64,000 nt of DNA from an uncultured archaeon (GTDB taxonomy: Archaea > Thermoproteota > Nitrososphaeria_A > Caldarchaeales > Wolframiiraptoraceae), in assembly GCA_938083505.1 (NCBI GenBank), contig CALKCF010000007.1, forward strand, positions 118,715 through 182,714, written 5' to 3'. The position numbers were made by a program, and so were the translations under genes. Shown piece after piece: positions 23,409-64,000 of this stretch (positions are counted from its first letter, which is position 1; each line of letters opens with the position of its first letter). The notes under the pieces are model-generated. The model did no database searches, was not told the origin of the DNA, and worked only from the letters and a program-made list of their open reading frames with translations.

Positions 23409-24525
23409 TGCTATACGGTGATATGACCGCGCCGAATTCCCTCTTGCTTGTATCTATCAGTCTGCCTGCAACCATAACCTTTACCGTCTCCTGGCCGACC
23501 GCCTTATACCGCGTAGTGCATCCGACACCGAGCGTAGCACCCTCGCCGACGACCGAGTAGAATATTACGGACCCCTCGCCAATTTTTACGTTCTCTAAGA
23601 TGAGCGAATTACCTAACGTAGCACCATCCCCAACCGACGTACCCTCTAACACGACAGTGTATGGTAAGATCGAGGAACCTTTGCCCAATTTTACGTTCTC
23701 GCCCAAGAAGCATGGACCGAAGAGTCTAGCACCGTTTTCTGTTTCGACGTGTGTGCCCGGACGCAAGAGTTTTCCGCTCTTGGGCGAATAGTTATGTTTA
23801 GACGATAAGTAGTCTAGGAATGTGATGTTGGCGTCCAATAAATCCCATGCCCTTCCAATATCGAACCATAAATTTTTGTTCATCTTTAGCACACATATTT
23901 TATGTCCGTCCTTGACAAGTAGGTTCAGTACGTCTGTCAGCTCGTATTCGCCCCTCGCTGACGGTTTAATCCTAGAAAAATACTTGACGGATTCTGATGG
24001 AAGTATGTATGCTCCAGCGTTCACGTAAGCCTCGTGGAAACCTTCTGCAGGCTTTTCCATTATGTGTTCCAGCATTCCATTTCTCTCTTCCAGAACACCA
24101 AAGTTGCTCGCATCTTTGACCCTAACGGCCAGTATGACACCATCGCAGGCACCTTCATTGAAAGAGGAAAGCATTTTCCCCACGACATCCTCTGTTATGG
24201 TTATGTCACCGTAGACGAGAAGGAAAGCATCCTCACCTTCGAGAAAATCCTTACATACATAAAGCGCATGGGCCGTGCCTAGTAACTCTCTCTGCTGAAT
24301 ATACGTTATCTCCATCGAAAGCCTTTCTCGGTCGACCGCGCGCCTGATCAATTCATCCATGTAAGCGACAGTTATGCCAACGTCCCTTATTCTATTGCTG
24401 ACTAGGGTCTCAAGCACCCTAATCAACACGGGTTTATCGACGAGCGGCAAAAGGTGCTTAGCCTTGAAACTCGTGAGGGGTTTTAGTCTTTTGCCTAGGC
24501 CTGCGGCGAAAACTACGGCCTTCAA
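23353..24525 (-). CDS. Sugar-1-phosphate nucleotidylyltransferase with hexapeptide repeats (GlmU-like)
   Basis: AAGLGKRL.PLT, LGTAHA, RGEYELTD, C-terminal left-handed beta-helix repeats. Confidence 0.9.
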   Translation of the reverse strand: MKAVVFAAGLGKRLKPLTSFKAKHLLPLVDKPVLIRVLETLVSNRIRDVGITVAYMDELIRRAVDRERLSMEITYIQQRELLGTAHALYVCKDFLEGEDAFLLVYGDITITEDVVGKMLSSFNEGACDGVILAVRVKDASNFGVLEERNGMLEHIMEKPAEGFHEAYVNAGAYILPSESVKYFSRIKPSARGEYELTDVLNLLVKDGHKICVLKMNKNLWFDIGRAWDLLDANITFLDYLSSKHNYSPKSGKLLRPGTHVETENGARLFGPCFLGENVKLGKGSSILPYTVVLEGTSVGDGATLGNSLILENVKIGEGSVIFYSVVGEGATLGVGCTTRYKAVGQETVKVMVAGRLIDTSKREFGAVISPYSNVPDGAVLEPGEVYWQEG

Positions 24526-36039: not shown

Positions 36040-36972
36040 TTAAAATTTTCTTCCATCCTGAAGTAAGTACAATAGTAAAGCAGCCTCGGTATGCAGCCTG
36101 TTAGCAGCCTGTTGCCAAACCATGGATTTCTTGCCATCGATCACGGATGCCTCCACTTCTTCTTCCCTATGCGCTGGTAAACAATGCATGAATATCGCGT
36201 CAGGTTTTGCTAAGGACATCAACTTCTCTGTTACCTTGTATCTCGGATAAAAAACCTTCAACCTCTTCTCCCTTTCTTCCTCCTGACCCATGGAAACAAA
36301 AACGTCTGTGTAGACAACGTCGGCATCCCTTACAGCCTCTTCTGGATTTTCTGTCAACTCTATTGAACTCCCAGACATCCTCATCCACTCCTTCGCTTGT
36401 GTTATCACGTTTTTTGGTGGCTGATATTCCTTAGGTGATGCCACCGAAATTCTGGCACCAAGTAGTGAACATGCTTGGATGAGAGAATTACAAACATTGT
36501 TTCCGTCACCGATGTAGGCAACTTTTACCCCTTGGATGCTACCCTTTAGCTCCTTGATCGTCATCATATCAGCAAGTCCTTGGCAAGGATGAAATCTATC
36601 ACTTAAGGCGTTGATTATCGGTACCGAGCTGTATCTTGCCATCTCAGAAAGCGTCTCATGCTTACAGACTCTTGCAACGATGGCGTCCACGTAAGCCGAC
36701 AGCGCGTGTGCGGTATCACTCAACGGCTCTCCTCTGCTCACTTGCATCTCGCTAACACTGAGCGGAACGCTTTCACCACCAAGCCTTGCTATCGCTACTT
36801 GAAAGGATACTCTGGTTCTAGTAGACGGTTTTTCGAAAATCAAAGCTACGGACTTGCCGGATAGTGGTTTATTATCGGGATATCCTTTCTTCTTAAAATT
36901 TATAGCCATGTCTATTATGCGTAGTATTTCTTCTGCGGTATATCCTTCAAAATCTAAGAAGTGTCTAACCAT
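36040..36972 (-). CDS. argF: Ornithine carbamoyltransferase
   Basis: STRT, HPCQ, SMG, HCLP. Confidence 0.97.
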   Translation of the reverse strand: MVRHFLDFEGYTAEEILRIIDMAINFKKKGYPDNKPLSGKSVALIFEKPSTRTRVSFQVAIARLGGESVPLSVSEMQVSRGEPLSDTAHALSAYVDAIVARVCKHETLSEMARYSSVPIINALSDRFHPCQGLADMMTIKELKGSIQGVKVAYIGDGNNVCNSLIQACSLLGARISVASPKEYQPPKNVITQAKEWMRMSGSSIELTENPEEAVRDADVVYTDVFVSMGQEEEREKRLKVFYPRYKVTEKLMSLAKPDAIFMHCLPAHREEEVEASVIDGKKSMVWQQAANRLHTEAALLLYLLQDGRKF

Positions 36973-37109
36973 GTCAAAACCGTATTACAAATAAATATTT
37001 AAGCGTACTAACTTGTGAAGCAATGGTAACCTTTATCTTAACTATCACCTATAACGTGACGTAGTCTAGGGGGGCGGTTTTCATATTCTTTGACGAAGAA
37101 GGAGAGGCG

Positions 37110-38918
37110 TTGGATAAAATACTGGAAGCGTTAGCCTCACCTATAAGGATTGAGATGCTGAAACAACTCTCTAAACATGATATGAACTACACGGAATTGA
37201 TACGCTCAGTGGGCATGAATCCTCAGAAAGATGCAGGAAAGTTCTCTTACCACTTGAAGAAGCTTCTCAGCTCTAAGCTCATAAGAATTAATGAGAAGAC
37301 GAAACTTTATGAGCTTTCTCATAGCGGTAGGGCAATGCTTGATGTAATTGAACAGGCAATAAGGAAGCTAGCAGGCTCGGACTTACTGATTGTCAGACGT
37401 AGCGAGTGCTCGATAGAACCCTTTGATAAGAATAAGATAGTGAACGCTTTGGTCAAGGAAGCTGGCATGCCAGCAAAACTTGCCCATAAAGTCGCATCCA
37501 TCGTGGAAGAAAAGCTTCTTGACCTTAAAATAGAGTACCTATCCGCACCCTTGATTAGGGAAATTGTAAACTCCATTTTGATAGACCAAGGGTTAGAAAA
37601 GTACAGACATAAGCTTACAAGGGTTGGCATGCCCATTTATGATGTCGCTCAGACGATCAAGAACGCTTCAAAGCAAGGTGGAACCACCGCTATCATGAAG
37701 TCTGCGGCAAATTCGGTTTTGAAGGAGTACGTGCTACTTAACGTGCTGCCAAGAAACGTAGCTGACGCTTATCTCTCCGGAATGGTAGACATTTGCTTTC
37801 TGGAATCATGGGTTACGTCAATTTATGGTAAGGCATACGATATACGTACACTAAATGATGCTGAGGGCGCAGATATGCGCGAGGCACTCATAATGAATTT
37901 CATGAGAGATGTGTTTGCTGTTGAAAAAGAATTTCTTCTTTACAATCTTAACGACGTTATGGCGAACAAAAAATTATTAAAACAACTTGTATCGGCACTC
38001 GTAAAAACTTCATCCCTAAGTATGTTTGAGGACCCTAAGTTTGTGCTTAACGTTGTCGAGAACTCGGAATGTGTAGAAGATTTTATAGAGAGTTTTGACA
38101 AGTATCAAAAGGATAACATCTCAATTGTATTAAGTAAAGATTTGATTGAGAGAATGTCCACACGTTACATTTCCAAAGAGGGGCTCGAATTAATATTCTC
38201 AAGATGTCCCAAATCAGAGATTTTAACGAGCGATGGATACAAAATCTCCATTAAGGATGCAGAAAATACCGAAAGCTTTCTATGTGGTGTGGCCGTGTTG
38301 AATATGCCAAGGTTGGCACTGCAGTCTGCGGGCAACGAGGAAGAATTTATGGAGTCCGTGAGAAGAACTATGCAGTTTATTATAACAGCCTTTATAAAGA
38401 AGATGAACCTGACAGACGTGCTTTATGGGGACGTAAACATAAAACACCAATTTATAGTATCACCATGCGGCATGTTCGAGGCGATAAAATGCTTAACGGG
38501 AAAATATCCGACCAACGAATCTTCCGATATTTTGTTAAATGTGTTGAGGGAAATGGTTAAGCTGACGTTGAAGAGCTCTAAAAAGAACTTCCAAACAGGG
38601 GTCGCTAATGTCTGTCCCCCACAATCCTCTAAGAGGATGACCAAGTCTGATATAGAGAGGTTTGGCTTCAAAACGATATCGAGCCTATCCTTCCATGCAA
38701 TGACATCTAACTTTGCCTATTCGACAACCATCGTGCCCCATGACGCGAAAATGCCGCAGGAAGATAGGCTACAGCTTGAGGTAAAAGTCGCCAACGTTTT
38801 GAACGGTGGTTATATGGTAATGCTGTCTAAACCTTCGAAGGACAAGGAAGCACAAGAAACCATCAACATTATCAAGAGGTACTTAGAAGCCGGCTGCGAT
38901 TCCCTAAAATTCATTTAG
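37110..38918 (+). CDS. ArsR-type HTH + ATP-cone + degenerate class III ribonucleotide reductase barrel
   Basis: N-terminal wHTH; VRRS....E.FD..KI...L..EA ATP cone; LTRVG.P.YD, LNMPRLA; no glycyl-radical RxxGY. Confidence 0.75.
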   Translation: MDKILEALASPIRIEMLKQLSKHDMNYTELIRSVGMNPQKDAGKFSYHLKKLLSSKLIRINEKTKLYELSHSGRAMLDVIEQAIRKLAGSDLLIVRRSECSIEPFDKNKIVNALVKEAGMPAKLAHKVASIVEEKLLDLKIEYLSAPLIREIVNSILIDQGLEKYRHKLTRVGMPIYDVAQTIKNASKQGGTTAIMKSAANSVLKEYVLLNVLPRNVADAYLSGMVDICFLESWVTSIYGKAYDIRTLNDAEGADMREALIMNFMRDVFAVEKEFLLYNLNDVMANKKLLKQLVSALVKTSSLSMFEDPKFVLNVVENSECVEDFIESFDKYQKDNISIVLSKDLIERMSTRYISKEGLELIFSRCPKSEILTSDGYKISIKDAENTESFLCGVAVLNMPRLALQSAGNEEEFMESVRRTMQFIITAFIKKMNLTDVLYGDVNIKHQFIVSPCGMFEAIKCLTGKYPTNESSDILLNVLREMVKLTLKSSKKNFQTGVANVCPPQSSKRMTKSDIERFGFKTISSLSFHAMTSNFAYSTTIVPHDAKMPQEDRLQLEVKVANVLNGGYMVMLSKPSKDKEAQETINIIKRYLEAGCDSLKFI

Positions 38919-39285
38919 ACTTTAGCAAAAGAATTGCCTTTGCTAAATCTCCGCCTACTTCTATGAGTGTCCTCTTTGCCTCCTCCTCAGACACACCTGC
39001 CTGGAGCGCCACGATGGCTATGTCGTCTGGCGACGGTTCGTAGACTGGAGCTTTTTCTTCACTTACTGTAACTTTCTGCTCAGAAACCTCGCCACCTATG
39101 ATCTGATAGACCTTTTCTCCACCAACTTGTAAAATCACGACGGTGGGCTCTTTTATTACTATGTCCCTATCCGGCAGACGAAGCACAACCTCCTTAGCAA
39201 CGTTTTGCTCTGTAACATCAAGACCCAAACTACTAAGTAGCTTTGATTGTATCCTTCTAAGTTCGCGCGAGCTCAACTTTCTCAT
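38911..39285 (-). CDS. nac: Nascent polypeptide-associated complex protein
   Basis: NAC barrel (YQ..G) plus UBA-like DDI..V..QAGVS.EEA...L....GDLA.AI. Confidence 0.92.
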   Translation of the reverse strand: MRKLSSRELRRIQSKLLSSLGLDVTEQNVAKEVVLRLPDRDIVIKEPTVVILQVGGEKVYQIIGGEVSEQKVTVSEEKAPVYEPSPDDIAIVALQAGVSEEEAKRTLIEVGGDLAKAILLLKSK

Positions 39286-41030: not shown

Positions 41031-41414
41031 TCAACCTTCCTTCTTTTCGGCTTCGAGCTTCTTCATAATATCGCCCAACGTATACCCACCAAGTTGTGGT
41101 TTGCTGAGAAATGGCTTATACTGATAATCCTCCACCTCACTCACCTCTTCTATTATCTGTATTTTCAAAAACTTCTCGAGCTTCTTAGCAAGCTCGATGG
41201 GGGGTTTGACTTCTCCCTGTTCGATTTTCTTAATGAGCGTTACTTTCTCGTTTAATTGCGTAGCAAGCTCCTCTTGTGACAAACCCATACGCTCTCTTGC
41301 GCTCTTTATCCTTACGTGAAAACCCTCCACATAATCGATTTTCTCCACAGGTATAAGGCTTTTTGAAGTCGTTCTCTTCTTAGGTTCGACCCTTTTCTGA
41401 AACTTAGAAGTCAT
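41031..41414 (-). CDS. mbf1: Multiprotein bridging factor aMBF1 (no N-terminal Zn ribbon)
   Basis: I..ARE..GLSQEELA..LNEK...I.KIE.G, TLGD; conserved position before hflX. Confidence 0.85.
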   Translation of the reverse strand: MTSKFQKRVEPKKRTTSKSLIPVEKIDYVEGFHVRIKSARERMGLSQEELATQLNEKVTLIKKIEQGEVKPPIELAKKLEKFLKIQIIEEVSEVEDYQYKPFLSKPQLGGYTLGDIMKKLEAEKKEG

Positions 41415-58837: not shown

Positions 58838-61800
58838 TTGAGGAAACTCCTTAGCTTAGGAATAATCTTCCTGCTTCTTACTTCAATCCTAGCGAATTTT
58901 GTTCCCGCTCTTCCCATTGAAGCTCAACAGCAGAGCTATGGATGGAAAGATGAGTTTAACTATCGAGGTTTGGACGAGGTGCAGGAAATCAAGCTTGTTA
59001 ATGATAGGCAATTTACTTTTGATGGCGGAGATGATTTTTATCCATTATGGAGCCCCGATGGATCAAAACTCCTCTTCTTGCGCGCAGTACCTTCTCTTGA
59101 GGAATGGAATGCTTCTTTATGGATTTCAGACCTTAAGGGAAAATTAATTGGCCCAATGATGGGAACGGTACTCACTGATGTTGGATGGAGTCCAGATAGC
59201 ACCAAAATCGCTTATTCGTCACTCAAAGTGAGGTATTCAGTCAGGTATTCTTGGAACTATTTTTGGGATGAATTACACATTTTTGATACTTCGACATCGG
59301 AGGATAAGGTAATTCTGACTACAGGAAAGAATGAGACGATTTCTTATCGTCTTTTAGCCCCTACAAGAAGTTTGGATTGGTTACCAAGAGGTGGAGGAAT
59401 AGTGTTCACACATTTCAGCATGTTTCGGCCTCAATTACCATTTTTCGCGAAAAGTCAAATCAACATCATTAGTGAGGATGGAAAATATCTTAAAACTCTT
59501 GTGGAAAGGGATGTGAGAACCGACCTCAGCATTATAAGTGACCTATTTGTTAGCAGTAGCGGGGATATTATTGGATTTTCAGAAATTCGTTTCAGTGAAT
59601 TGCCTCTGCAACCATACTCCGAGTCGATTAATCGACTATGGCTTATGAATGTTGATGGAAGCAATCAGCAATTAATTTTAGAGCTTCCAAGCCATCCAGG
59701 CCTTTTTTCCCCAATAAAATCTATCAGCTTCTTAGATGAATCCAAGATACTCATTGAAAGATGGAATATTAGACTTCTTGAGGAGCCGCCTGGGAGAATG
59801 GATTTTGAAAAATTCGAAATCGGCATCATCGACATAAGCACCAAGAAATTTACATCACTACTAACGTTTTCCCTTGAAACAGTTCCTTTTAGCTTTATAG
59901 GAATTTCAAGAAAACAACCTTCATTTAACAATAAATTCCTTTATGCAAACATAACAACAACCGGTGATTACTCTGTGGAATATAGCATTTGGTTATTTGA
60001 TGTTAAAGACCATACTAAGAAAGTATTACTGTCTAAACCATTTAAAAGAGAGTGGTTAGAGAAATGGTCATTTCTCGTGCTATTATTTCTTTTTCACGGT
60101 GTTAGCGTAAGTCCTACTGGAGAAAGAATAGCCTACTTATATCCAGATGGTGAAGGTGAGCATATGAAGATCTGGGTAGCGGAGGTGGAAGGGCTTGCAC
60201 CTAAAGTAACGAGGCTTAATGTAGAAGTTGTTGATCCAAGTCCTCCAGATGGTGCTAGGAGAAGCCCACCAATAACTTTTAGGGCAAGGGTAACTTCTGA
60301 TGGCCAGCCTGTTCGGGATGCCTTCGTGACCTTCTACATGGGCGATGGCGGAACCAGTTATATTGGACAATCGAACATAAGAACGGATGCTAATGGCTAT
60401 GCTGAGGTTAGGGACTGGGATCCAAAATGGGATCATGAAGTAACATTTAGATGGTGGGCTGAAGCATGGAAGGAAGGATATGAAAGCGGAATATCGGAAA
60501 AGAGAAGTCTAATTTATGTTCCCGCATCTAAATTAGACATTACAGATATCGCTAGTGGTCCTTTTGGAGTTATAATCTTTAAGGTTAAGAATCAAGCGAC
60601 AAAAACGGTAAAGATAAACTCCTATGAGATATATGTAAATGATAAGAAGACAGGATGGAATGATAATGTATCTGAGGAATTGCCTAAAGGAGAAGAATAC
60701 TTATTTGTTACTCCCTTTTCTTTTAGCAGTTTAACTGAGGTAACGAAGGTAAAAGTAATAGTAAACTACAATGGGAAAGATAGTTGGTTAGAAGAGAGTT
60801 GGTCTGAGAGGGACGTTGAAGAAAGATTATTAAAGGCTAGAGATTATTTAAAGAATTTAGGTGTAAGGGATATACCTGAGGACATCCCAAAAATAAGCTA
60901 CCCAGCCAACGTGAAGCAACCATACTATGATTATGGAACAGATACCATATATGTACCAGTTAATTATACCCAGTCTGACTTTGTAATTTTGCACGAATAT
61001 GGACATTTTATCGAAGATAAGTGGTATTTGTTTAATATGCCAGATGATTGGGAGGGAGATTGCCAGAGAATTGGGAAAAAGAATGCTATGAAGGAGGGAT
61101 GGGCTCATTTTCTTGCCTCCCTTGCTCGAAATTCTCCAAAAATTCTTGAGGCGCAGCCTGTTGGAATTAATATGGATTTTGAAGACCCATTCTCTAATAC
61201 AATCTTTTGTGCTCATACAATGGATAAACGGCAAGAAAACGAAGCATGTGTTGTTTCAGTTGCAGGTATTTTCTGGGATCTTTATGACCCTGCTAATGAG
61301 GAGTTCGATCAACTTCAAATTTCACCAGAAGAGCTTGTATCTTTAATAAAAGAGAGTATGAAATGGAATAGTGAAGGGTTTAAAACATTTTACATCAATT
61401 TTAACGCCAAATATAGAGGAACCGATTTACCAGAAAAGCTTGATAAGTTATTACTGGAAGGATATGGCATCAGCTATATCAACCTGAAAACAGAATTTCT
61501 TGTAGCTTCACTTCACTCACCGGCAAATCTTCATGCATATGATTCTGAAGGTAAACATGTAGGAGTGAATGAACGGGGTGAAATAGAGATAGAGATACCG
61601 AATTCGTATTATACAGGTCCTGATGCTGAACCGGAGGAAATTATAATTTTCGGTCAAAGCGAGGGGATAACTTTTAAAATTGAGGGAATCGCTGAAGGTA
61701 ACTTCAGCCTATTAATAGAGCAGAAAAAGGATAATTACATAAAAAGAGTGGAGTACAGGAACATTTTTATCACAAACTCTACATATGCCATAGTTGAAAT

Positions 61801-62071
61801 AGGTCTTTCCAACCCTGAATATGTGATGTCCTTAGATTATGATAAAGATGGGATAATAGATGAGAAAAAGGTACCAAATGTGACAGAGGGGACTCTTCCT
61901 TCAGAAACGGTTGGACCATTTTTACTTTTGGAATGCTTTTATGTCTTTTTGACAATCGCTACAATAATCATTGCAGCTTTTTTAATACTAAAATTTAGAA
62001 AGAAGACTAAGATCAAGTCTGATAAAAACCGAGTAAATGAATTTAAATTCATCCTTTTAAGGACTTACTAA
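58838..62071 (+). CDS. Membrane-anchored surface protein: TolB-like propeller, Ig-like domains, zinc metallopeptidase
   Basis: Signal peptide; WSPDG/WSPDS repeats; HEYGH...EGWA; DYDKDG; C-terminal TM + basic tail. Confidence 0.75.
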   Translation: MRKLLSLGIIFLLLTSILANFVPALPIEAQQQSYGWKDEFNYRGLDEVQEIKLVNDRQFTFDGGDDFYPLWSPDGSKLLFLRAVPSLEEWNASLWISDLKGKLIGPMMGTVLTDVGWSPDSTKIAYSSLKVRYSVRYSWNYFWDELHIFDTSTSEDKVILTTGKNETISYRLLAPTRSLDWLPRGGGIVFTHFSMFRPQLPFFAKSQINIISEDGKYLKTLVERDVRTDLSIISDLFVSSSGDIIGFSEIRFSELPLQPYSESINRLWLMNVDGSNQQLILELPSHPGLFSPIKSISFLDESKILIERWNIRLLEEPPGRMDFEKFEIGIIDISTKKFTSLLTFSLETVPFSFIGISRKQPSFNNKFLYANITTTGDYSVEYSIWLFDVKDHTKKVLLSKPFKREWLEKWSFLVLLFLFHGVSVSPTGERIAYLYPDGEGEHMKIWVAEVEGLAPKVTRLNVEVVDPSPPDGARRSPPITFRARVTSDGQPVRDAFVTFYMGDGGTSYIGQSNIRTDANGYAEVRDWDPKWDHEVTFRWWAEAWKEGYESGISEKRSLIYVPASKLDITDIASGPFGVIIFKVKNQATKTVKINSYEIYVNDKKTGWNDNVSEELPKGEEYLFVTPFSFSSLTEVTKVKVIVNYNGKDSWLEESWSERDVEERLLKARDYLKNLGVRDIPEDIPKISYPANVKQPYYDYGTDTIYVPVNYTQSDFVILHEYGHFIEDKWYLFNMPDDWEGDCQRIGKKNAMKEGWAHFLASLARNSPKILEAQPVGINMDFEDPFSNTIFCAHTMDKRQENEACVVSVAGIFWDLYDPANEEFDQLQISPEELVSLIKESMKWNSEGFKTFYINFNAKYRGTDLPEKLDKLLLEGYGISYINLKTEFLVASLHSPANLHAYDSEGKHVGVNERGEIEIEIPNSYYTGPDAEPEEIIIFGQSEGITFKIEGIAEGNFSLLIEQKKDNYIKRVEYRNIFITNSTYAIVEIGLSNPEYVMSLDYDKDGIIDEKKVPNVTEGTLPSETVGPFLLLECFYVFLTIATIIIAAFLILKFRKKTKIKSDKNRVNEFKFILLRTY

Positions 62072-62681
62072 CTTACTACAATTAAAAGTGAAAGCATATC
62101 TTGCATTTATTTGCTTTACTCCTCCTTCTCCCCGAAGGATAATGTAACACCTCATCGCGTCTTCACTCTTAGGGAATTCTATACTACAATTTTCACTATT
62201 ATTTCCCAATACACATTTGCTACAGTAAGATAATACTACAGGTCTGCAGGAATTCCAATGTTCTTTATGAATGTGTGTAAATCGTATTCTAATAACAAAT
62301 CCCAAAATAAAAATGGTCGTGAGAAAAATCACATATATCAAGGAAACTTCAGGTCTAATTGTTTTTAACTTTCTGTAAATTATGACTAAACTGCAAGCGA
62401 CAATGTATGTAGAGAAAAACCAAAAAGGAGGAAGTATGAACGATTTTTTATGCATTTCACTTAATACAGGAACTCCAAATATTAAAAGTAACACTGATGT
62501 CTCGATTATTAGTAAAAAAGTAAATGCTTTTATAAAAATATTGTTGATATTATCACCTTTATCCACAAATAGCCAAAAATTCACAGAAGAAAAAAATGAT
62601 TCCAAAATTTAATAAGAGGAGAAATACTATGATCTTGAGTAAATCTGGCTTTAAGAACTCCTTAACGGCTTTCCAACCCAT
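62057..62681 (-). CDS. Membrane protein, probably frameshifted near the 5' end
   Basis: ORF 62057..62605 has 3 TM segments and a Cys-rich tail; upstream ATG 62681 (MGWKAVKEFLKPDLLKII..) is in another frame. Confidence 0.4.
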
Positions 62682-62940
62682 AAACTCATCTAATTAAAAA
62701 TTACTTTAAAATTATAAAAATAGTGATGACTCCCTATATCCATTTGTTTGATGCATTCCTTAATTGAGGCATATTATATCCTATTGTGATCAAAATTAGT
62801 TTACCACGCTCTCAACATTCAAAACAATAAAATTCTAGTTAAATCGAATATGACTGCCTTACCAAGAAATGTTTTAAAGTATGTGATAGCTCATGAAATG
62901 ATACTGTCCGGAATTTCTTAGTGAAAGACAAACTATTATC

Positions 62941-63624
62941 ATGGAATGGTTAAAGAAACTTGTCTCCAAATTGTTTAAATGGAATAGAGTTCCTCTAGAA
63001 ACTAAGTTGCAAGCGATAATAGATTGGCTTGAATGCTCCAGCTACAGGAAAGCCTCTAAAAAGCTTAGGTTGCAAGGTAAAAGGGCGAGCAAATCTTCCA
63101 TTTGGGAATGGGTCAATAAGCTTGCTAAAGCAATAGAGCTAAGAATTCCAAAAAAGGAGAGGGAATTTGTTGCCATGGATGAAACTTGCTTCAAAGCCAA
63201 TGGAGCTAAAGTCTTCATCTACTCTGCTTTGGATGTTGAGGAAAGAATTTGTCTTGGAGCTAAGGTATTTACCTCCAGGAATTATTTTACCACTAGCCTT
63301 TTCCTTGAGAAAGTTATGGTAGTATGCAAGAATAAGCCCACTTTCCTTGTTGATAAGGGTCCTTGGTATAAAGAGGTTTTTGAAAGCAGGCAAATTCCCT
63401 ACCAACATGTAACCTGGGGGAAGAGAAACCTGGTTGAGCGCTTCTTTGGTAGCTTAAAGCAAAGAACCAGGTTATTCTTCAACAACATCAATGTTAACTT
63501 CAAGCTTTTGCTTAAGCGCATGGAAGCTGGACTAAGAGATGGGGTAGCTATGCAGAGAATTGACCTCTTCCTAAAGCTATTTGTACATTGGTTCAATGAA
63601 ACAGGAAAGCCTAGAATGCCCTAG
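62941..63624 (+). CDS. IS6-family DDE transposase
   Basis: SYR..S, W.WV, DET..K.NG, DKGPWY, RN.VER.F..LK.R. Confidence 0.9.
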   Translation: MEWLKKLVSKLFKWNRVPLETKLQAIIDWLECSSYRKASKKLRLQGKRASKSSIWEWVNKLAKAIELRIPKKEREFVAMDETCFKANGAKVFIYSALDVEERICLGAKVFTSRNYFTTSLFLEKVMVVCKNKPTFLVDKGPWYKEVFESRQIPYQHVTWGKRNLVERFFGSLKQRTRLFFNNINVNFKLLLKRMEAGLRDGVAMQRIDLFLKLFVHWFNETGKPRMP

Positions 63625-63796
63625 CTGTAAAAGAAAAATTCCGGTGCAGGAGCTAGAGTTTATTCTAGATGGCTTAATCTGGGATCAAAAGGAGCAGAGA
63701 GTAAAGTTCCCATTTCCTGAGAAAAGGATGAAAGATATAATACGTTGTTTTCGTTGCCCTTTTTGTAAAGCTGAAATTCCAGTTGAGAAAGAATAA
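63596..63796 (+). CDS. Zinc-ribbon protein inside IS6
   Basis: CPSC...CPFC; ends 12 nt before the right TIR. Confidence 0.6.
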   Translation: MKQESLECPSCKRKIPVQELEFILDGLIWDQKEQRVKFPFPEKRMKDIIRCFRCPFCKAEIPVEKE

Positions 63797-64000
63797 ATTT
63801 TATCATTCAATTCCGGACAGTATCAATATTCGTTAAGTTGAATTTAAATCTTTGAAAGGATGCTTGAGTACTTCTCCATTCTCATCATTTTCCCTCAGGC
63901 TGAATAAGCCAAGTCATCCAGCAAAGCTCTATGGGCATATAACCACAAGCCAAAACAACTTCTTCAGCTTTTTAATGAATTCAATATCATCGTTAACAAA

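Follow-up and report, generated by a model that had tools for sequence, protein, structure and literature searches.

The gene at positions 37110-38918 on the forward strand of the window, by which we mean the whole 64,000-nucleotide stretch of archaeal DNA analysed here, encodes a protein of 602 amino acids in which a winged helix-turn-helix (wHTH) and an ATP-cone-like domain are followed by the barrel of a class III ribonucleotide reductase (RNR), NrdD, devoid of its catalytic residues. We refer to this gene, together with its family members, as REG. In our judgement, which we would place somewhat above even chances, REG is a dead NrdD paralogue equipped with a wHTH, and it controls deoxyribonucleotide supply at the level of transcription.

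A class III ribonucleotide reductase barrel without catalytic residues

The REG frame opens with a TTG start codon preceded by a GGAG-rich stretch, and the database holds an identical 602-residue protein (P0002). Two congeners have CTG or CTT as their first codon, and an ATG at codon 16 is kept in 7/7; codons 1-15 are nonetheless still conserved as protein across the family. On the forward strand, the ArsR-like wHTH (DUF7347) occupies residues 4-80 (37119-37349; Pfam 1.5e-9, above cut-off) and the ATP-cone-like domain residues 95-165 (37392-37604; PF03477, 2.5e-8, above cut-off). The invariant linker YRHKLTRVGMPIYDV, which is predicted to be flexible, covers residues 165-179 (37602-37646) and takes the place of the connector of true NrdD. 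The NrdD-type alpha/beta barrel follows (residues 176-602, 37635-38915), within which the Pfam NRDD model (PF13597) matches residues 309-593 at 4.5e-15, above its cut-off. An earlier interpretation made from the letters alone (the sequence-only reading) had recognised an ArsR-like wHTH, an ATP-cone and NrdD-like remnants in a chain that ends ahead of the Zn site and the glycyl-radical loop. All of these were borne out, the remnants being DICFLES (227-233), LNMPRLA (397-403), GMFEA (454-458), YSTT (537-540) and LNGG (564-567), and the chain stopping at GCDSLKFI before both sites.

The C-terminal region of REG is the ten-stranded alpha/beta barrel of a class III RNR, a fold type shared by RNRs and glycyl-radical enzymes, as a comparison with NrdD structures, proposed as a check by the same reading, and the Pfam match both establish. 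An AlphaFold2 model built from 42 homologues as input reached a mean pLDDT of 84, and its best 36 Foldseek matches in the PDB are NrdD throughout (E 5e-17 to 1e-11, TM 0.53-0.60), with class I R1 proteins ranking after them at only about 1e-7. The REG family profile likewise matches the Streptococcus thermophilus NrdD 9d3x at 6.9e-22.

What is left of the active site was assessed in an alignment of the REG family with Escherichia coli NrdD (NC_000913) and six true archaeal NrdDs of the same phylum, using as reference the features of the PcNrdD active site, namely HxHD, the NxN flap, the Cys pair and the Zn ribbon with its glycyl loop (PMC11226230). The first-strand Cys column (E. coli C175, PcNrdD C171), which holds Cys in 7/7 true NrdDs, is Gly240 in REG (37827-37829). 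The thiyl-radical Cys column in the finger loop (E. coli C384, PcNrdD C416) is Tyr377 (38238-38240; SDGYKIS versus SMCCRLR / PMGCRSF), and only 4/149 family members have Cys there. The HxHD triphosphate motif is replaced by D227-I228-C229-F230 (37788-37799; PMC11226230), the NxN flap segment is deleted across the whole family, and both the Cys4 Zn ribbon and the RVxGY glycyl-radical loop are absent from the 602-residue protein. None of the 149 family members keeps both catalytic Cys together with the Gly, and REG scores 60.2 bits against a cut-off of 326 with the TIGR02487 equivalog model of NrdD. Every catalytic feature tested is thus missing, as the notion of a dead NrdD had implied, and by this alignment REG cannot act as a ribonucleotide reductase. 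Other NrdD motifs are left in the barrel: NxPR, GxxE, R509, Y537 and GG, the first of them as the structural motif N398-M-P-R (38301-38312), whose N398 is invariant in the family.

The gene inventory of this genome (98.5% complete) completes the picture. The sequence-only reading had noted that no nrdG lies nearby, and this extends to the whole genome, where NrdG2, with a cut-off of 131 bits, reaches no more than 58.9 with its best radical-SAM match. A second match to PF13597 was not found in this genome, and NrdD is absent from it as well as from the ammonia oxidisers discussed below. Its single working RNR is an adenosylcobalamin-dependent class II enzyme, NrdJ, which has an ATP-cone of its own; those of nrdJ and REG are the only two ATP-cones in the genome. 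With NrdR lacking as well (see below), the genome offers no competitor for the role proposed here for REG.

The putative DNA-binding head, the cone-like domain and the predicted dimer

At its N-terminus the REG family profile matches NmtR (3e-5), NolR and ArsR, with a basic and nearly invariant recognition helix, DAGKFSYHLKKL, at residues 41-52; the ArsR models themselves stay below their cut-offs for REG (HTH_5 19.1 versus 22, NF033788 29.8 versus 55). An ArsR-type metal site is missing because residues 1-99 contain no Cys, the first being residue 100, and REG shares only the fold class with the ArsR/SmtB metalloregulators.

The cone-like domain reaches 34.8 bits with PF03477 against a gathering score of 25.8 and covers profile positions 3-75 of 88; the cones of true NrdD are longer by about 17 residues. 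In canonical cones the Lys-Arg pair of the V-x-K-R hairpin contacts the nucleotide phosphates (K9/R10 in EcRNR, K19/R20 in StNrdD; PMC12662201). The REG hairpin instead reads V95-R96-R97-S98, and family members in general have (R/K/T/A)-Ser at these two positions, the Ser being nearly invariant, so that the canonical Arg is absent and the Lys often absent too. Other cone residues are still conserved, namely an invariant Arg96, Glu103, Phe105, Asp106, Lys109 and I110. A PDB search with the cone region as a single sequence returned nothing useful. Since the canonical Lys-Arg hairpin is missing, sensing of ATP or dATP by REG is an assumption, and nucleotide binding by its cone is plausible rather than assured. 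The most conserved elements of REG are the recognition helix, parts of the cone, the linker (YRHKLTR.GMP.YDV) and the first core helices of the barrel (EY.LLN.LPR).

Those first core helices (residues 179-211, 37644-37742) also form the main part of a predicted homodimer interface, which comprises residues 179-211, 235-237, 257-270, 295-305 and 434-439. Two copies of the barrel (residues 176-602) were predicted to associate with a score of 0.46, the best control giving 0.00; a score of this height was reached by 20/30 proteins solved as pairs and by 1/23 solved as single chains. Contact agreement between runs was at least 89% and partner pLDDT at least 83. The prediction supports an NrdD-like homodimer of REG, with the reservation that it may echo the model's memory of solved NrdD dimers.

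Conservation, gene order and promoters

Intact REG frames of equal length and with the same C-terminus occur in 7/7 congeners, the C-terminal end being identical or nearly so in all of them, and we therefore take it as the natural end of the protein. Within the genus, dN/dS amounts to 0.04 for the wHTH, 0.05 for cone plus linker and 0.12 for the barrel, ratios that are rough because dS is near saturation; as judged from them, REG is under purifying selection. The gene was found in 39/41 genomes and 12/12 genera of its order, its N-terminal module in 144/201 genomes and 69/94 genera of the phylum, and in a library of 1.84 billion proteins that module matches 140 clusters with a threshold of E <= 1e-30, a number that rises to 539 with E <= 1e-10. 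The first 245 residues are 45-56% identical between families and the barrel 25-30% identical or undetectable by sequence; the barrel changes about three times faster than the N-terminal module, and one family of the order has a barrel that can no longer be recognised from its sequence. About 81 of the 149 family members keep the Cys4 ribbon, and REG of this organism falls in a derived clade (support 0.978) that unites at least 30 short forms without the ribbon in a tree rooted on true NrdDs, the rooting being approximate with an outgroup of seven sequences. This implies that the Zn ribbon was ancestral in the REG family and was lost several times.

The gene order around REG, at the level of the family, is the main and a strong support for a role in regulating RNR. 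When a phylum-wide survey of nrdJ was crossed with those of REG and nrdD, REG was found to adjoin nrdJ in 24 of the 26 genomes of one family (f5) of amoA-positive ammonia oxidisers, directly upstream and on the same strand in 23 of them and divergently in one; in the two others REG and nrdJ lie on short contigs. In a further family (f6) it stands upstream of a cone-less class II-like RNR in 3/3 genomes, and in six genomes of four further families directly upstream of a true nrdD. On one contig from Bathyarchaeia, REG is followed by a glutaredoxin-like gene (grx) and this in turn by an nrdD that scores 516 bits and has its SRVTGYY motif intact, and elsewhere in Bathyarchaeia the neighbours include pyrB/pyrI, a dCMP deaminase and a 5'-deoxynucleotidase-like HD protein. 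REG thus stands next to RNR genes of two classes in 33 of the 144 genomes that have it, these 33 belonging to at least six families, and for this reason we regard a role in regulating the synthesis of DNA precursors as probable. That it tracks RNR function rather than its own homologue is what would be expected of an RNR-specific transcription factor.

In the window itself the surroundings are different in kind. Upstream, on the reverse strand, lies argF, encoding ornithine carbamoyltransferase (36040-36972; TIGR00658, 405 bits versus a cut-off of 281), and the two genes diverge from a common promoter region of 137 bp (36973-37109) with the genus-conserved blocks CGTATTACA, ATATTTAAGCGTACTAAC, GGTAACCTTTATCTTAA and AGGGGGCGG, of which GGTAACCTTTATCTTAA is likely the TATA box of REG. 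Three families of the order share this divergent arrangement, and argF is missing from the REG neighbourhood in several genera. Downstream, a convergent NAC gene on the reverse strand (38911-39285) overlaps the REG stop codon by 8 nt and is followed by a TGT-C2/PUA gene and HflX. This layout is kept through much of the order, and the REG-NAC-PUA-HflX block extends to other Nitrososphaeria; being old housekeeping synteny, it is weak evidence on the function of REG. REG and nrdJ are never adjacent in this order; they are 56-66 kb apart in three congeners and lie on different contigs in this genome.

A motif search upstream of the nrd genes, which the sequence-only reading had put forward as a test, did not yield an operator common to REG and nrdJ. 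The aligned REG/argF, nrdJ and pyrB promoters of six to seven congeners each display conserved blocks and have none in common, and when the regions upstream of REG, 68 in number and drawn from 31 families, were searched for inverted-repeat dyads and 7-9-mers, none rose above shuffled or reversed controls. Order-wide k-mers upstream of nrdJ brought up ACGATTAT in 5/12 genera, which was rejected because its position and strand are inconsistent; TTCATA, at -107 to -160 in 4/12 genera, is not significant. The REG-nrdJ junction of the ammonia oxidisers contains a 13-bp palindrome, TATGAAnTTCATA, perfect in eight genomes; it overlaps with the stop codon of REG, and the TATA box of nrdJ follows about 55 nt further downstream. 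No copy was found in the regions preceding the REG genes of the ammonia oxidisers nor, allowing up to two mismatches, in the order of the present organism. The nrdJ promoter in this genome (contig C1, about 23,480-23,653), which includes GATATAGAACTTTATAC, contains the genus-conserved block GATATAGAACTT(C/T)ATAC, whose sole other near-copy in the genome is within a coding region. This block and the palindrome have GAACTTCATA and a similar distance to the TATA box in common and differ in the left half-site. Their resemblance is suggestive and may serve as a lead only.

Proposed role and its alternatives

The scheme that we propose, in which we infer DNA binding, the ligand, the targets in this genome and the sign of regulation, would run as follows. 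A catalytically dead NrdD paralogue, whose barrel was retained as a scaffold for dimerisation, acquired a winged helix of the ArsR type at its N-terminus, and REG would be an NrdD-like homodimer with two winged helices facing DNA. Its signal-receiving part would be made up of the cone-like domain plus the invariant linker, the ligand would most likely be an adenine nucleotide (ATP/dATP), and the signal could alter the geometry or the oligomeric state of the DNA-binding heads. The output would be transcriptional control of deoxyribonucleotide supply, with nrdJ, as the sole RNR gene, being the likely target in this organism and the divergent argF as well as REG's own promoter being possible further ones. 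A more ambitious version of this idea, about which we are clearly more hesitant, is that the REG family is the principal regulator of dNTP supply in Nitrososphaeria (including the ammonia oxidisers), Caldarchaeales and Bathyarchaeia, in which ATP/dATP moves the two winged helices, and that it represents an independent archaeal invention akin to NrdR. The remodelled cone, the linker and the dimer interface would then be allosteric machinery kept from the RNR subunit.

The sequence-only reading had likewise cast REG as an archaeal functional analog of NrdR, and this stands in part. REG resembles NrdR in that a DNA-binding module is combined with an ATP-cone-type domain in a protein often encoded beside RNR genes (PMC9110341, PMC12176259), and by analogy the proposed logic would be the same, namely nucleotide-dependent control of RNR transcription. 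The dead NrdD barrel is borne out, and the gene-order link in other lineages speaks for a regulatory role; the separation from nrdJ in this genome, the failure to find an operator, the altered hairpin of the cone and the co-occurrence of the two proteins in one family weaken the analogy. NrdR is a protein of about 150 residues with a Zn ribbon and a canonical cone, whereas the 602-residue REG has a wHTH, a cone without Lys-Arg and a dead NrdD barrel. REG is not a member of the NrdR family, because it has no match to TIGR00244 and no NrdR-type N-terminal Zn ribbon of two CxxC pairs, the place of which is taken by the wHTH. NrdR is rare in archaea (PMC9110341); it had no match in this genome (TIGR00244, E <= 1e-5), and in the phylum it is confined to 8/201 genomes, all of one family (f15, 8/8), where it always adjoins nrdD. 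REG coexists with it in 8/8 of these genomes, so REG is not simply a stand-in for NrdR, and the two are not mutually exclusive.

Compared with structurally known NrdDs (T4 1H78, Thermotoga maritima 4COI, Prevotella copri 8P23, S. thermophilus 9D3X), REG has the barrel, an N-terminal cone and the structural motifs in common with them and, according to the model, dimerises through the same first core helices; in cone and linker it shares 39-45% identity with archaeal NrdD from the same phylum. Unlike NrdD, it has an extra wHTH and is without both Cys, the glycyl-radical domain, the Zn site, the NxN flap, HxHD and an NrdG partner. Long members of the family (about 700-770 residues, in Bathyarchaeia and ammonia oxidisers) share the wHTH-cone-barrel order and the catalytic loss, and they still possess the Cys4 Zn ribbon along with a vestige of the C-terminal tail, both of which have been lost in the clade of REG described here. 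In MocR/GabR and the ROK repressors (NagC/Mlc), too, an HTH is joined to a domain that was once an enzyme and now serves in sensing or dimerisation; they are built on other enzyme folds, and none is known to derive from a ribonucleotide reductase. The present REG is a reduced, ribbon-less family member and, on the reading given here, would be an RNR regulator linked to nucleotides and constructed from a pseudo-enzyme.

The least comfortable competitor of this proposal, which we nevertheless consider unlikely, retains DNA binding and dispenses with the sensor: REG would be a regulator or chromatin-like protein whose cone and barrel are structural and whose targets are unrelated to dNTP supply, for instance argF and the use of carbamoyl phosphate. 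The replaced Lys-Arg pair fits this, as do the divergent argF retained in three families, the recurrence of a carbamoyltransferase gene (pyrB) beside REG in Bathyarchaeia and the lack of an operator in common with nrdJ. Against it, cone and linker are among the most constrained parts (dN/dS 0.05, with the invariant YRHKLTR.GMP), which suggests that they are more than a spacer; adjacency to two classes of RNR in at least six families points to dNTP supply, and argF is not near REG in several genera. Less probable still is that REG acts by protein contact: it might, for example, bind a working RNR as an allosteric partner or as a decoy subunit, and its wHTH would then be a module for protein interaction or dimerisation. 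The NrdD-like dimer interface that the model suggests has been kept and the co-location with nrdD in some genomes would agree with that; however, neither this genome nor the ammonia oxidisers provide an NrdD as a partner, their RNR is of class II and has a different interface, and a basic, nearly invariant recognition helix rather fits contact with DNA.

That REG should still be an enzyme, either a reductase with another radical source or a protein performing different chemistry in the old barrel, we deem very improbable. Purifying selection on the barrel (dN/dS 0.12) and the surviving NxPR, GxxE, R509, Y537 and GG motifs could be read in this way, but none of the residues on which radical transfer and triphosphate binding are known to depend is left (PMC11226230), the barrel evolves about three times faster than the N-terminal module to the point of being unrecognisable in one family, and the genome encodes no activase. 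A decaying pseudogene or an annotation artefact, as the C-terminus, short in comparison with NrdD, and the non-ATG, poorly conserved start codon might have led one to believe, has next to no probability and is refuted by the intact frames in 7/7 congeners, the low dN/dS, the near-universal presence in the order and the wide occurrence in the phylum.

In the portions of the full-text literature accessible to us, including the main papers on RNR phylogeny, ATP-cones and NrdR, we found no description of the REG family, and this large family apparently is undescribed. Its members are labelled in databases as 'anaerobic ribonucleoside-triphosphate reductase', 'ATP cone domain-containing protein' or 'ArsR family regulator', and the suspicion that similar fusions in related archaea are annotated as NrdD thus proved correct. 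The label 'anaerobic RNR', given even in aerobic ammonia oxidisers and in the present genome with no NrdG, misleads metabolic reconstructions as to oxygen lifestyle. The control of RNR transcription in archaea is largely unknown, and REG is a concrete and testable candidate for it; if our proposal is true, it would strikingly exemplify the reuse of an enzyme subunit as a transcription factor.

The nrdJ upstream region and the REG start codon

As to the TATA box of nrdJ, the class II ribonucleotide reductase (RNR) gene of the window's own genome, a block conserved across the genus, GATATAGAACTT(C/T)ATAC, is found ~40 nt upstream (contig C1:23535-23551, or about 3536-3552 of L056, the corresponding locus). 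It has GAACTTCATA in common with a 13-bp palindrome of the ammonia oxidisers, TATGAAnTTCATA, which there overlaps the stop codon of REG, the gene joining a winged HTH and an ATP-cone-like domain to a dead NrdD barrel, and likewise lies upstream of nrdJ. A gene for a Metallophos-type phosphoesterase directly precedes nrdJ in our genome (L056:2749-3507), and genes of this type are also found just upstream of REG homologues on two unrelated contigs (L089:4606-5463; L095:3098-3970).

The putative start codon of REG (region 37110-37157) is TTG in the window, and the same codon reads CTG or CTT in two congeners; in one congener no ATG, GTG or TTG is found ahead of a conserved ATG, which is codon 16 of REG. 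Codons 1-15 are conserved at the protein level and contribute to the first helix of the winged HTH.

Genes beside REG and in the rest of the window

In the REG family a carbamoyltransferase gene is repeatedly found nearby, and which carbamoyltransferase it is varies between lineages. In Caldarchaeales-like genomes it is that of ornithine carbamoyltransferase, divergent from REG, as with argF in the window (36040-36972), and in Bathyarchaeia that of aspartate carbamoyltransferase with pyrI, convergent or at a distance of 1-2 kb. Near REG homologues, pyrB was located at L088:8375-9301, L089:8263-9183 and L091:9531-10454; the pyrB-pyrI pair of our own genome occupies a separate location (C4:48.2-49.5 kb).

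A small HTH_3 (XRE-type) gene on the minus strand (41031-41414) accompanies HflX and the PUA gene within their shared synteny block in distant Nitrososphaeria (L094, L095). The G+C content of positions 60001-64000 is 0.34-0.38, versus about 0.43 in the remainder of the window, and GC skew is strongly positive at 60-62 kb; this segment may be foreign DNA.

RNR frames and NrdR across the phylum

Across the phylum, numerous nrdJ and nrdD genes reside in open frames of 1,100-2,800 aa in which the RNR match falls into two or three pieces (for example on G187:C61, G138:C1, G122:C20, G039:C7 and G006:C11), a pattern that would be expected of intein insertions. Within the phylum, bacterial-type NrdR scoring above the cut-off is confined to a single family, f15, where it always stands immediately upstream of nrdD (as at G148:C2:115672-116100 and G061:C3:106033-106458), and the same genomes carry a REG-type wHTH-cone-dead-NrdD gene elsewhere.
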